IMG/VR virus record: IMGVR_UViG_3300031853_000010
Location: 39,162 to 103,161 of that record
Strand: one strand, 5' to 3'
From: a virus
Taxonomy: Duplodnaviria > Caudoviricetes
DNA length: 64,000 nucleotides
The notes under the pieces were generated by a model. The model was not told where the DNA came from and did no database searches. It saw only the letters and a list, made by a program, of their open reading frames with translations. The position numbers and the translations under genes are program-made. This document shows positions 1-64,000 of the stretch, in pieces (position 1 is the stretch's first letter; each line of letters begins with the position of its first letter).

Positions 1-1454
1 AAGTCAATTGACATATTCTCTACCTTATTTCCATTGAAAAAGTCTGCCGCACCATTGGTTGAAAGATTTTTAAACACAGTGCGGACGGCGGCGATATAGT
101 TTCCATCAGCAACGTCATTTGTATTTTCCTGATAGTTGTCTGTAAAATAATATGTAGGACTTTTATCACAAACACCAGTAAGAGTATAGTTTGAATAGGT
201 TGCATCGGAAACAGTAAAGCCTGTATCATTTATCTGTGTATAAAGAGGATGTGGAGTCTAAATAGAACCTGTCATGAAAGGAATAAATTCTACTTCTTCT
301 GTTTCAACATTCTCTATTGTAGAAACATTGTTATCAGTAATATTTACCAATCCGCCGCGATACCTACGGTTATAAATTATCATGCCTGGGAAGTATTCCC
401 CATTGTGATAGTTGCTTTGATATGAGCCATTTCTTATCACTGGTATAATAAAAAGAGTTGATTTATTGTAAATATTTTTCAAATATTTAAGATTATTCCA
501 ACAGGCTTCAAGATGAGCCACATAATCTTCATAAGTTGTAGGAAGTATAACTGAGTTCTTATAGAAGCCATCGTATTTAAGATAGGGTTTTAAGACTTCG
601 ACGTTTAATGGAATAACTATCGGCTGTATATCCATATATACTGTATACTGAGAAAGTAAAGCAAAAGCTGTCCAAAGGTAAAGCATATTCTCCCAAAGCT
701 AAGCTATCTCATCAAGCATTTCATCCATAAGTCTTCTGATAGGATTATCAGGATTGAATAAGTATGCAAGTATTGCCGCAAGAACTTGACCAATGACCCA
801 GAAATTGCGGTTTAAATCTTCTGCTTCAACCTCTCTTTCATATTCTGGCATAAGAAGACGAAGATATTTGTTAAATAAATGAGTAAATTGAAGATGTTCT
901 TTATTGTTCAAAACTCTTACTATTTTATCATTTTTACGAACTTCGCTGTAATTATCTGAGTCAATATTTTTCCACGGAACTACCCATTCGCCATTATTGA
1001 AACTATTTCCAGCATTAGCATTTAAAATATCACTAATGGTAAATTCAGTAGAGTCGATAGGCTATGTGCTATTGATACAGTTGTAATAAAGTTGTATAAG
1101 CTGATTAAAACTTTCATTCCAATGTGTCTGTCTATTCTCTGGATTGAGAACAAATAAACTATCTAAGAATGTATCCACAAGGTCTGCATTGTTATTAATA
1201 AACTCTGCTACACTCTATACACTTGCAGCAGGATTGCCATCACTTAAAAAGTCTAAATCTCTTATGCCATAGTGTTGAAGTCTTCCTTGTTCATTTTCAC
1301 TTTGGAGGAACTTAGTTAAGCCATCCCAGAATACGTCTTGGTGTTCTGCGAACTTCTTTAATGACACACCGCTGAAATTATCAATGGTAGTTCCTTCCTC
1401 ACCATTAATTAATTCCTTTATTACTTCGTTCATTTCAGTGTAATCTGATGCCAT
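1..1454 (-). CDS. Hypothetical (probably virion-associated) protein, TAG-recoded, runs off the left edge
   Basis: ATG at 1454 with GGAGGTG RBS. Track ORFs 1215-1469, 699-911 and 258-686 share one frame and are separated only by TAG (1215, 1062, 699, 258); no TAA/TGA down to base 1. Confidence 0.8.
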
Positions 1455-1477
1455 GTTTTCACCTCCCATAGTAAAAT

Positions 1478-1506
1478 GGCCGCCATCCGCTTTATGAATG
1501 GCGGCA
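1478..1506 (-). terminator. GC-rich hairpin after the endolysin
   Basis: GCCGCCAT...ATGGCGGC inverted repeat followed by a short T-run on the minus strand. Confidence 0.55.
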
Positions 1507-1513
1507 TAATGAA

Positions 1514-61000: not shown

Positions 61001-62836
61001 AGATTTTAATGCAGTATCAACCTTATTAAAATCCAAATCATCAAATTCAGAATCGGCTGTGCCCGCCACGTTAGTCTTTAACTCTGTAAATCTTGCGATA
61101 ATTGTCTTTAAAGATGTACCGATGTTCTCAGCAGATTCCTGTGTGGTTTCAATAACCTGAGTAAGGAAAGCGGCTGTATTCTCGAAACTCATACCAGCAG
61201 AGTTAGCGATTGAAGCAGTTCTCGCCATAGCCTGTGCGATACCGTCAACGTTAGCAGCAGCGTGAGCGGCAAGCTCTGAGTAAACGTCGGTAACGTGAGC
61301 ACCATTATCCATTTCCATACGGAAACCGCGGATAGCTGATGTCATTTCCTCGGTAGCTGTACTAAAGTCATTACCTGCCAATGTAGCAAGTTTCATGGTG
61401 TCGGTTGTCAATTCAAGTGCTTCATTAGTATCAAGACCTTGCTGATAGAACAAAGCAGATGCCTTAACGACGTCTTCTGTCTTTTGACCAAGTTCTGCCG
61501 CCATGGATGCGTATCTTCCATAAGAAGACCACATTCCTTGAACGCTGTTTGATGTAACCATCGCGATTGAAGCGAAGGCTTTATCAAGTTTCTTAACATC
61601 ATTATAAGTATCTCTAATCTGTTTCTTTAAAGTATTAATAATAGAAGTAACACTGAAAAACATGAGAAGTCTTGATTTCAACTAATCAAATGTTGATGAA
61701 GCTTCTTTCGCATTCTTCATATTTTCTCTTAGAAAATCTGAATTTCTGTTAAGTGCTTCACCTGCTTTTTTAGCCGAACCTGTAAGATTTTCATCAATGG
61801 TATTAAGTTTACGAGATGATTCCGCGAGGTCTTCTGCCGACCTTGCTGAAGAAGACATTGTAGAGCCACTCTTCTTTTCAATAGCCATCAATTCTCTAAG
61901 TGCTGATACAAGACCCTTTGTGGCTTCTTGGTTTACTTTCCAAGTATTACCACTTCTTTTACCTATCTCACTTAAAGAGGCTTCTGCTCGAGCTACCTGC
62001 TAATCAACTTCTGCTTGTCTGCCTGAAGCTTTATTAAGCTCATTCATTGAACCCAATACGCCATCTATGTAAGATAAAAATGCCGAACCATTTTTATTCA
62101 TATACTTTGTAAGGTCCATGTCCTTCATCATTTGCTTAATTCTTGACATAGCCTCTTCATAGCTATTTGCAGCAGAAAGGATTTCCTTTACCTATGCTGT
62201 AGTCTGGTCCATTCTCTCCTGAGAAGGAGCTTTACGGCCTTGCTTCCAAATATCTCTACCCTAAAAATCTGTTGCTTCTGTAGTATTTAAATTATTAACG
62301 GAAGCCACATTATTACTATAAGTAGACATAGATGCTTGATACTGTTCTCTCTTTGCTATCGCTTCATTATATAATTTTAATCTTTCTTTTAATTCTTCAT
62401 TTAATACTTTTTCAGCTTCAGCCTATTTGTCTTCTGCCTTTAAAATCCTATCAAGCCCATTGGTAATATTTGAAGTAGGTATGGCTTGTTCATAAGCCTT
62501 CTTTACTTTATTAGTAGCTTCTACTGTTTTTCTACTCCACTCGTCTACCTTTTCATTGATATTGTGTATACGTCTTTCAAAACTACCAAATTCTCCAAGA
62601 ACTTCATGAACTCGCTTTTTAAAGTTAGCAAGTTCTTTTTCATTTGTAAATCCTTCTTTACCTTCTTGCTGTAAATATTTATAAGACTCAGCAAGACTAT
62701 CGAGGTCTTTCTTTAATCTATCTGTGACGCCTTTTGATACACCCGCAGACTTCATTTCTGAAATTGCGTTTTTATACTTATTAACAAAACTTGAGACATC
62801 TAAGTCCAAGCTATAAGTTTCTTTGTAATCTGCCAT
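55013..62836 (-). CDS. Tail tape measure protein (TP901-like core), 2607 aa, ~40 TAG
   Basis: ESAENIGTSLKTIIAR, AGSRQQSRFIAMM core; TM segment near 59700; C-terminal GGLVDYTGPA.VDGT..PEAFL; all track pieces in one frame. Confidence 0.92.
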
Positions 62837-62851
62837 TCACTATTCACCTCT

Positions 62852-64000
62852 TTAAATCGTAAAATTAATTGTAATGCCCCTAAAGTAGATTTCTCCACCA
62901 TCTAAGACTCTACTATTTTTGATATACATGATATTCTTCTTTTTCATGCCAACATTACCATACTCAAACATTTCTTTTGTAGTTCCATCTGCATATTCCT
63001 TTGTGCCGATATTTTTTGGTTTTGCCTTCTAACGGTAAGCTGGAAAAGTGCCATTTAACTAAAATAATCTTTGACTATCATCCTATTTTTCTAATTGCTG
63101 TTTTACCTTATTGATGGCGGCGGCAATCAGGAAAGAGCTTGGAAAATAGTATTGACCAATTACATATATATCACTTTCAAGACCTTTATCAATTGAGGCA
63201 TCGCTTATACGTAAGAAGTTATTAATAGAGCCAAAAAAGCTCATTTCCATTTTCTTTCTTAAGTCTGGTATATCACCGACCTCTGTTAAATATACACCAT
63301 TGGCAAAGAGCCATCTATAATTTTTTACGTCATCTTCTTTAAAATACTTAAACATTTCTTTACGTCCTAAATGAACAGTTTCTTCATATAATCTTGTAGA
63401 ATTACTTGGTTTATAATTTTTAACCTAAAAACCCACTGTTGAATTTGCTATTCTGGCTACAACGTCATAATTCAACTGACCGCCGACACCAGCTCTGTCT
63501 CCACCAGTAACTTCGGTGTATATACCGTCTTTTGCTTTTTCAGAACCAATCTGTAAAGCATAAGCAGTGGCAACCTCACCAAGCAAACCCTTCATCTAAA
63601 CAGGACCATAAGCAGACATCGCATCAAGTGCTCTATCTCCTCTTTTGATTGTCTTATCAATTTTTTGGAAAAATGCTCTTGATAAATTTTGTATTTCTTT
63701 CGGTTCCATTTTTCTATCGATTACTCCTTCAATTTTTTGAGTAATGAAATCAAGGAATAATTGTTTAATTTGGACTCTATCACCATTTAAACCCTCAACC
63801 ATATCATCCTCATGGGTTTTAACGAAATAGGTTCTATTATATTTACGAAAGTCAACTCTTTCACCATTAACAGGTCTACCTTCTTCTTTTGCTTTTCTGA
63901 GTTCACTTCTTTGTCTTTTCTTTTCATCAATTCTTACTTGAACTACCGCATTAAATTTCCCGTCGCCTTCACGCCATTCTGAATTAACTTCAAGAACACC
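62852..64000 (-). CDS. Hypothetical protein with PD-(D/E)xK-like motifs, 5' end outside the window, at least 5 TAG
   Basis: KGLLGE...YDVV...GF*VKNY; open from 64000 to TAA at 62852 when TAG is read through. Confidence 0.7.

Follow-up and report, generated by a model that had tools for sequence, protein, structure and literature searches.

Translation of TAG under code 15 has been described in phages of Firmicutes and Bacteroidetes, together with suppressor tRNAs and an enrichment of the recoded codon in late genes (Borges et al., bioRxiv 10.1101/2021.08.26.457843), and peptides spanning TAG have provided proteomic proof that it is read as glutamine in crAss-like phages (Peters et al., PMC9523058). 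The lineage studied here, large, siphovirus-like, and using code 15 (NCBI), is an additional instance of this already well-documented phenomenon. As in the recoded gut phages of Borges et al. (crAss-like, Lak, and Jade/Sapphire/Agate/Topaz phages), in-frame TAGs align to Gln, GC content is low (36% in our genome), a minority of genes is recoded with structural genes strongly enriched, and tRNA(CUA) is found in recoded members. Further shared traits are a close standard-code relative with TAG as its least-used stop and a homing endonuclease in which the recoded codon is abundant. Unlike in those clades, the gene content here is typical of siphoviruses that infect Gram-positive hosts, and, unlike in Lak, Agate, and Jade phages, a code-change module (RF2, aminoacyl-tRNA synthetase) was absent from two complete relatives, one recoded and one of standard code.

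Two other groups of described phages bear comparison. The first is phAss-1 (proposed Phassvirus), a 136-kb human-gut member of the Caudoviricetes in which 41 ORFs contain TAG; three tRNA-Sup(CTA) and 36 tRNAs are reported for it (PMC10607447). Like our lineage, it is a large tailed phage encoding many tRNAs and several suppressor copies, with TAG in tape measure and fiber genes, and it has no aminoacyl-tRNA synthetase of its own, for which reason its suppressor is presumed to be charged by the host. However, no relatedness was seen, and phAss-1 was absent among the DNA polymerase matches listed (25 of 1,420). Among those same 25 matches, the polymerase studied here was 37–39% identical over 99% of its length to enzymes of the second group, the Enterococcus and SPbeta-like phages. 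Enterococcus phages VRE9/EF1 (134–142 kb) and Bacillus SPbeta-like phages (127–134 kb) belong to a similar size class and likewise encode a Sipho_tail Dit, a Tal, and a very long tape measure protein, but they use the standard code, and because identity is low the relation holds at the level of gene families only.

Genome fragment and relatives

The stretch analyzed, hereafter the window, makes up the right-hand 64 kb (64,000 nucleotides) of a 103-kb contig (G000). At 63% completeness, the contig is only a fragment of a siphovirus-like phage genome of about 165–186 kb, and it lacks a large terminase gene. It was compared with two recoded relatives, G001 (complete, syntenic with the contig, and encoding 48 tRNAs) and G002, with a complete standard-code relative, G005, and with L003, an independent assembly obtained from a different sample and 98.8% identical at the nucleotide level. 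The source samples apparently derive from ruminant gut, and the host is probably a ruminal member of the Bacillota; the closest relatives of the endolysin were located in metagenome-assembled genomes (MAGs) of ruminant Oscillospiraceae. A megablast search of a 20-kb stretch of the window (20000–40000) against GenBank phages returned no nucleotide match. A crAss-like identity, suggested by the genome size, was rejected because the gene set comprises tail genes of siphovirus type together with a YorL-type polymerase. For a PurA-like gene, neither PDB matches nor the P-loop motif separated PurZ from PurA.

TAG as a sense codon

Across the contig, 159 in-frame TAGs were present in 32,833 codons that contained no in-frame TAA or TGA, and each off-frame of these same codons held 499–2116 TAA/TGA. 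A preliminary description of the window had proposed genome-wide reassignment of TAG to Gln, to be checked by comparing coding density under tables 11 and 15. In this comparison, contig density rose from 80.5% (table 11, 158 ORFs) to 95.0% (TAG as sense, 107 ORFs), with an increase in median ORF length from 128 to 183 amino acids. Control recodings gave 84% (TGA as sense) and 90% (TAA as sense), both times with more numerous and shorter ORFs. G001 and G002 recovered density and ORF length with TAG as sense in the same way as the contig, while G005 did not.

Within the window, ~120 in-frame TAGs were spread over 29 of 51 genes, in line with the more than 100 counted by hand for the preliminary description, and one more lies in the part of the 731-aa gene upstream of base 1, outside the window. 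Its statement that fragments resume in the same frame was likewise borne out, most visibly by the 2607-aa tape measure protein (55013–62836, minus strand), in which 39 TAGs fall within a single ORF of 7.8 kb. Seven stop/start overlaps, four of the TAATG type and three 4-nt overlaps at a TGA stop, were present as expected from its claim that read-through restores gene couplings. That every gene ends in TAA or TGA is true, but by construction; with TAG as sense, the contig used 75 TAA and 31 TGA stops.

Four small genes had been named as missing from the standard-code ORF list, and all four exist as ORFs when TAG is sense, although their homology varies. Two have clear homologs: a 90-aa ORF visible solely when TAG is read through (7284–7556, minus strand), which has four TAGs, a TAATG coupling to the next gene, and a homolog in G001, and a 143-aa ORF (25378–25809, plus strand) with two TAGs, conserved in G001 and G002. 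The G001 homolog of the third, an 87-aa ORF with two TAGs (10923–11186, minus strand), was marginal (E 4e-4), and the fourth, a 94-aa ORF with one TAG (13359–13643, plus strand), had no homolog among the relatives searched.

Genes do look broken under table 11, as they would if the TAGs were untranslated and reflected pseudogenes, assembly or sequencing artifacts, or programmed termination into fragments. Yet the frames are broken by TAG alone, the frame is always kept, and the sites recur in relatives and in the independent assembly, where TAG was retained at 8/8 shared sites. Moreover, essential genes are hit too, including those for the tape measure, a DnaB-like helicase (30337–32040, plus strand; one TAG), and a YorL/Pol III-alpha-type DNA polymerase (37428–41402, plus strand; one TAG). 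The idea that these codons go untranslated is thus already refuted by the data, its probability being very small.

Residue inserted at TAG

We compared G000 and G001 codon by codon, with X at TAG in the query and the subject read with table 11, so that the comparison was unbiased. Opposite 100 G000 TAGs, G001 had CAG 17 times, GAA 16, TAG 15, and CAA 7, and Gln was ahead of Glu, the next-best residue, by 49 log-likelihood units. In the reverse direction, the G000 codons opposite G001 TAGs were CAA (42), CAG (28), GAA (23), and TAG (18), with Gln ahead of Glu by 135 units; 12% of all G000 CAA codons and 7% of CAG faced a G001 TAG, compared with at most 5% for any other codon. The G002 comparison gave the same picture (Gln leading by 36 units), and Gln was still the top residue, by 8 units, in G005, which had no TAG in 12,662 aligned codons.

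More distant homologs were informative for the RecJ-like exonuclease (33109–34902, plus strand), the six TAGs of which are at residues 29, 277, 297, 331, 504, and 581. Against 150 diverse representatives, Gln was present at residue 581 in 133 of 138 homologs and was the most frequent residue at positions 331 and 297, while the variable columns 277 and 504 were mostly Pro and mostly Gly, respectively. In G001, five of the six TAGs are CAG within identical local peptides. The tabulation of residues therefore upholds the assignment to Gln, as do several of the individual sites named beforehand. With X marking TAG, the RecJ site RVGTXS is CAG in G001 and CAA in G002, the RecJ site VPXI is the column with Gln in 133 of 138 homologs, and ITVXNY is CAG in G005; the last is in the 2146-aa tail-associated (Tal-like) protein (45226–51666, minus strand; 15 TAGs). 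The outcome was mixed for YEMXK in the anaerobic ribonucleotide reductase NrdD (17729–19741, plus strand). G001 has CAG at both NrdD TAG positions, with identical local context, but the YEMXK column is not conserved, since G005 has Asn there and Thermotoga NrdD has Lys; residues 98 and 460, where the TAGs lie, are Lys and Glu in the Thermotoga enzyme. PDB homologs were uninformative, the NrdD TAGs being at variable columns and the two TAGs of a ClpP-like protease (42533–43285, plus strand) outside the aligned region. The 731-aa protein, of which the C-terminal two-thirds is encoded in the window (3–1469, minus strand; four in-frame TAGs there), is paralogous to two upstream proteins of 1144 and 1210 aa, and among these paralogs Gln occupied three of seven TAG columns, too few to weigh.

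It is very improbable that TAG specifies a different amino acid (Glu, Lys, Tyr, Trp, Leu, Ser, or pyrrolysine) or is read ambiguously as Glu and Gln. Glu codons were the second commonest partners of TAG, but true CAA/CAG codons showed a similar Glu fraction, and the lead of 49–135 log-likelihood units that Gln had over Glu was larger still over the other residues; the conservation of RecJ residue 581 also speaks for Gln. ARAGORN called the tRNAs with anticodon CUA "Pyl", from the anticodon alone, whereas their canonical GG D-loops and TTCGA T-loops are unlike those of tRNA-Pyl. In a host without GlnRS, incompletely amidated Glu-tRNA could insert Glu.

Decoding machinery

As stated in the preliminary description, the window held neither a tRNA nor a release factor in tRNA and profile searches. 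It had further suggested looking beyond the window for tRNA(CUA), RF2, and GlnRS, and here the result was divided. The contig encodes only tRNA-Leu(CAA) and tRNA-Gly(UCC), both upstream of the window. No credible tRNA(CUA) was found on it, ARAGORN at relaxed thresholds with introns giving noise only and Rfam at a permissive E-value recovering just the two known tRNAs. However, G001 and G002 each encode two tRNA(CUA), which in G001 belong to a tRNA array and lie at 24.7–25.3 kb, and the standard-code G005 none. Profiles for release factors (PF00472) and GlnRS (PF00749) detected nothing in G000, G001, G002, or G005, with positive controls. By synteny, the tRNA array would lie beyond the left end of the contig, and from this synteny with G001 and G002 we infer that the phage has a suppressor tRNA of its own.

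All four tRNA(CUA) have U1-A72 and A73, as do all three tRNA-Gln of G001; the G005 tRNA-Gln has U1-A72 but G73, and U1-A72 was present in just 6 of 75 other tRNAs. In Escherichia coli, the supE suppressor is a tRNA-Gln with anticodon CUA that competes with RF1 to insert Gln at UAG. The suppressors of the relatives are similar in combining a tRNA-Gln-like body with this anticodon, and differ in being phage-borne and duplicated. We propose that UAG is decoded by phage-encoded amber-suppressor tRNAs, which for this phage would be in the array missing from the fragment. Given the tRNA-Gln-like acceptor end (U1-A72/A73, as in the phage's own tRNA-Gln) and the lack of a phage GlnRS or release factor, host enzymes would load them with Gln, and, once charged, the suppressors would compete for UAG with the RF1 of the host. 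The base following in-frame TAGs matches such competition: T followed 16.7% of in-frame TAGs, compared with 21.6% of CAA/CAG codons and 39.5% of true stops (p = 0.003).

How the host would carry out this charging depends on its enzymes. GatCAB recognizes U1-A72, and in a clostridial host lacking GlnRS the tRNA(CUA) would have to receive Glu from a non-discriminating GluRS before its amidation by GatCAB, a route of indirect transamidation. We regard this route as rather unlikely. A glnS gene was not found in three of the ruminant Oscillospiraceae MAGs with the closest endolysin relatives.

Distribution of TAG among genes

The recoding is real, but its description as genome-wide was overstated, as TAG is found in only ~46% of genes (41–47%) and its use is strongly graded by module. 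The TAG share of Gln codons was ~4% in the tRNA-repair (presumed early) module, ~10% in the replication module, and 16–25% in the fiber and tail genes, the tail having 25% (chi-square 51.9, p = 3e-11), and the load averaged ~5 TAGs per 1000 codons overall and ~11 per 1000 in tail genes. In addition to the tape measure and Tal-like proteins, heavily recoded minus-strand products included a 1074-aa Dit-like distal tail protein (51666–54890; seven TAGs), a 316-aa protein encoded upstream of the tape measure gene (62852–63802; five), a 1103-aa protein without family match that is probably a tail fiber (3973–7284; seven), and a 1116-aa BspA-type leucine-rich-repeat protein (7598–10948; six). On the plus strand, the large subunit of topoisomerase II (20924–22867) had one TAG and the second subunit (22916–25309) none, with 1 CAA and 14 CAG; a 326-aa protein without family match (14852–15832), 58% identical to its G001 counterpart, had three.

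This gradient would be expected under the model of timing put forward by Borges et al., in which genes expressed before the suppressor builds up stay readable in the standard code of the host and virion genes depend on the suppressor; the grading of TAG use by module suggests that the same would hold here. A somewhat unlikely alternative is that TAG is decoded but its distribution has no regulatory role, AT-biased mutation having piled TAG into the genes richest in AT-rich codons once a suppressor existed. CAG becomes TAG by a single C-to-T change, the TAG share per gene follows the CAA share (Spearman rho 0.78, p = 4e-9), and GC3, at 0.354 in the TAG-poor module, is down to 0.258 in the tail module. 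TAGs are also found in replication genes, and lysis genes are not enriched. On the other hand, G001 shows the same module pattern in stronger form, with 36–56% TAG in tail genes and 0/66 in DNA polymerase and topoisomerase, module A (tRNAs and RNA-repair genes) is nearly free of TAG in both G000 and G001, and the pattern is as described for eight other recoded clades (bioRxiv 10.1101/2021.08.26.457843). Because TAG share follows a general regime of A/T-ending codons, the gradient could be partly compositional; the timing model and the compositional reading are compatible and not mutually exclusive. Replication genes, such as that for RecJ with its six TAGs, also need the suppressor.

Lysis genes showed no bias toward TAG, unlike in the crAss-like and Agate phages for which such a bias has been reported. 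The GH25 endolysin (1514–2596, minus strand; seven Gln codons) and a GH113-family glycoside hydrolase (2828–3931, minus strand) have no TAG in G000, and their G001 orthologs have one and three. We rejected the sparing of lysis genes as a conserved feature, given these G001 TAGs and the size of the sample in G000 (0 of 14 Gln codons, P ~0.09). In G005, TAG is the rarest stop (10 of 130).

Discussion

We are highly confident that the best explanation of these data is that UAG is read as Gln (code 15), decoded by phage suppressor tRNAs, with graded use of TAG among genes. It has a practical consequence: table 11 shatters the 107 genes of the contig into ~158 fragments, interrupts 29 of the 51 window genes, misannotates the tape measure, Tal, Dit, fiber, RecJ, and NrdD proteins, and misses small genes. 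Because standard-code annotation breaks genes in this way, all analyses of the contig should use TAG = Gln.

The recoded genomes G000, G001, and G002, placed beside the standard-code G005, provide a compact comparative set for the origin of recoding, in which the presence of suppressor tRNAs among relatives matches the code used. The lineage is also a counterexample to the reported lysis-gene bias. As the phenomenon is established already, the finding would raise a new question only if the host turned out to lack GlnRS. We know of no work that has addressed an indirect transamidation route for code-15 phages; if that route were true, stop-codon reassignment in this lineage would proceed via an indirect pathway, and UAG might be read ambiguously as Glu or Gln.

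In-frame TAG codons and coding capacity

Under translation table 11, the contig (IMGVR_UViG_3300031853_000010; a single linear viral sequence of 103,161 bp, GC 36%, with the window at bases 39162-103161) yielded 158 ORFs covering 80.5% of its length. The coding-density comparison proposed in the preliminary description gave 107 ORFs and 95.0% coverage once TAG was read as sense, and the median ORF lengthened from 128 to 183 aa; with TGA or TAA recoded as controls, ORFs became more numerous and shorter. The TAG-sense gene set held 159 in-frame TAGs, spaced evenly along genes without clustering at gene ends, and no in-frame TAA or TGA in 32,833 codons, while the off-frames held hundreds to thousands each. 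Approximately 120 of the TAGs were located in the window, in 29 of its 51 genes. The interruption of genes by TAG that had been described was thus confirmed, and the TAATG/ATGA couplings and four extra small ORFs were likewise present with TAG as sense, two of the four being clearly conserved in relatives. Moreover, an independent assembly from another sample (98.8% nucleotide identity) retained TAG at all eight shared sites, which are therefore not assembly errors.

Identity of the residue at TAG

A RecJ query with X at its six TAGs was compared with 150 diverse full-length representatives. Residue 581 was Gln in 133 of 138 representatives, and Gln was commonest at residues 331 and 297 (68/150 and 35/150, respectively; background Gln frequency 3.3%), while the other three sites fell in variable or gapped columns.

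Among the related viral contigs gathered, three were examined in full: the recoded G001 and G002, and G005, a complete, DTR-bounded relative that uses the standard code. Our contig matches ~37-145 kb of G001 (186 kb, 100% complete), and the two are syntenic. An unbiased tblastn search, with TAG masked as X in our proteins and G001 translated under table 11, aligned 100 TAGs of our contig; their partners in G001 included CAG (17), GAA (16), TAG (15), and CAA (7), and a likelihood test based on per-amino-acid substitution profiles drawn from the same alignments placed Gln ahead of Glu by 49 log units and of all others by at least 69. In the reverse direction, 214 aligned G001 TAGs stood opposite CAA (42), CAG (28), GAA (23), and TAG (18), with Gln first by 135 units; the G002 comparison agreed, with a Gln lead of 36 units. 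G005 had no TAG in 12,662 aligned codons, and recoding TAG in it raised density only from 88.2% to 91.3% without merging ORFs; with G005 as comparator, Gln still ranked first for our TAGs. At individual sites, G001 had CAG in place of five of the six TAGs of RecJ and of both TAGs of NrdD, the surrounding peptides being identical; the ITV*NY site of Tal was TAG in the two recoded relatives and CAG in G005. The relatives' codons, likelihood tests, and RecJ representatives together support the reading of TAG as Gln.

Suppressor tRNAs and termination

The window had been said to lack a suppressor tRNA, and indeed no tRNA of any kind was found there; the whole contig carried only tRNA-Leu(CAA) and tRNA-Gly(UCC). 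The suggested search of the rest of the contig, which is 63% complete (CheckV), returned no tRNA-CUA or RF2, nor any other release-factor or GlnRS/GluRS-type domain. G001 encodes 48 tRNAs, including three tRNA-Gln and two tRNA(CUA); the same Leu/Gly pair lies at 51.4-51.8 kb, and a large array at 4-30 kb, which by synteny would be located just past the left end of our contig, includes both tRNA(CUA) (24.7 and 25.2 kb). Two tRNA(CUA) genes were also present in G002, and none among the 24 tRNAs of standard-code G005 (ARAGORN). All four tRNA(CUA), and the three G001 tRNA-Gln, start with a U1-A72 pair and have discriminator A73, while U1-A72 occurred in just 6 of 75 other tRNAs. One G001 tRNA with anticodon CAU shares this U1-A72/A73 end. 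The D- and T-loops of the four tRNA(CUA) are canonical, which rules out tRNA-Pyl.

Release factors and class-Ic synthetases were absent from all three relatives, two of which are complete. Host enzymes would then charge the phage suppressor tRNAs, which, once charged, would compete with host RF1. The base following an in-frame TAG was T in 16.7% of cases; CAA/CAG codons gave 21.6% and true stops 39.5% (p = 0.003). This modest depletion of T fits such competition.

Uneven use of TAG among genes

The preliminary reading of TAG as Gln is supported, but 'genome-wide' goes too far, as use of TAG is not uniform. Its share of Gln codons was lowest, at 3.7%, in the leftmost module (tRNAs, polynucleotide-kinase/HD protein, RNA ligase), and climbed through the replication (9.5%) and fibre/lysis (16%) modules to 25% in the tail module (chi-square 51.9, p = 3e-11). 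The contrast was sharper in G001, where Tal (45 of 88 Gln codons), tape measure (57/157), and Dit (14/25) were TAG-rich, and the DNA polymerase (0/38) and topoisomerase subunits (0/28) TAG-free. Genes with at least one TAG made up 41-47% of the gene count in each of the three recoded genomes, inside the 26-71% reported for recoded phages of standard-code hosts (Borges et al., bioRxiv 10.1101/2021.08.26.457843), and the gradient fits the model of these authors in which early genes remain readable before the suppressor acts. A caveat to this model is that lysis genes showed no TAG enrichment, and the TAG-free state of those on our contig was neither significant nor conserved.

At the gene level, two Gln-codon regimes were seen across the contig, one CAG-dominated without TAG (e.g., 22916-25309 and 26293-29524) and one CAA-dominated with many TAGs. 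Because TAG share tracked CAA share per gene (Spearman rho 0.78, 40 genes) and rose as GC3 fell, composition may contribute to the gradient. TAG was the rarest stop in standard-code G005 (10/130), as expected under the 'stop-codon loss first' scenario.

Gene content and host

By gene content the phage is large and siphovirus-like, and a crAss-like identity was rejected. Tail genes encode a tape measure protein (2607 aa), a Sipho_tail/Dit-like protein, and a Tal-like protein (2146 aa). Between the fibre genes and the GH25 endolysin lies an intact, TAG-free GH113-family glycoside hydrolase (window 2828-3931, minus strand; Pfam E 5e-94). Two BspA-type leucine-rich-repeat proteins in the fibre region, both on the minus strand (window 7598-10948, 1116 aa; L002:16857-17588, 243 aa), are probably receptor-binding parts. 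The plus-strand replication module encodes an ATP-dependent ligase, NrdD, two topoisomerase II subunits, a DnaB-like helicase, RecJ, a YorL/Pol III-alpha-type DNA polymerase, a ClpP-like protease, and a dUTPase. In two related contigs (L010 and L011), the RecJ match was restricted to residues 1-439 with the contigs running on, and many database representatives likewise end near residue 439, which suggests a split gene or insertion at this position in part of the lineage. A 128-aa gene (window 35091-35477, plus strand) has its G001 homologue elsewhere, directly after nrdD at 100.9-101.3 kb, suggesting a mobile small gene.

At a locus upstream of the window (L002:2908-5164; genome 22908-25164), part of a thymidylate synthase gene adjoins a 339-aa ORF whose C-terminus matches GIY-YIG homing endonucleases; the arrangement resembles the insertion of an intron or homing endonuclease. 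The ORF has five TAGs amid a TAG-poor stretch, paralleling the strongly recoded intron endonuclease of Agate phages (Borges et al.). A divergent adenylosuccinate-synthetase (PurA-like) protein of 391 aa (L001:15670-16845, genome coordinates, minus strand), adjacent to an AAA_33+HD kinase/phosphatase-like protein and an RNA ligase, has the P-loop GDEGKG and PDB matches at the PurA level only (E 5e-15); finding such a homologue in a phage prompts the question whether PurZ and 2-aminoadenine DNA are involved.

By polymerase, the nearest cultured phages among the matches listed were Enterococcus VRE9/EF1 and Bacillus SPbeta-like phages (37-39% identity). This SPbeta/Enterococcus-type polymerase, the GH25 endolysin, and the Sipho_tail/Prophage_tail proteins point to a Bacillota host. 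The top bacterial endolysin matches (~40% identity, catalytic domain only) came from sheep- and deer-gut MAGs of Oscillospiraceae and are weak host evidence. Three of these MAGs showed no glnS, raising the speculative idea that Gln at UAG might be made via GluRS and GatCAB; glnS was present in a Terrisporobacter MAG. The U1-A72 pair is a known GatCAB determinant in the tRNA-dependent amidotransferase literature.

Relation to known recoding

TAG-to-Gln recoding, suppressor tRNAs, and late-gene enrichment are established in many gut phage clades (bioRxiv 10.1101/2021.08.26.457843), with peptide proof of the recoding in crAss-like phages (PMC9523058) and a further description of it in phAss-1 (PMC10607447). 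The terminase gene, by which the named clades are placed, is missing from the contig. The phage is another example of this established recoding, and the main value of the finding lies in correct annotation.
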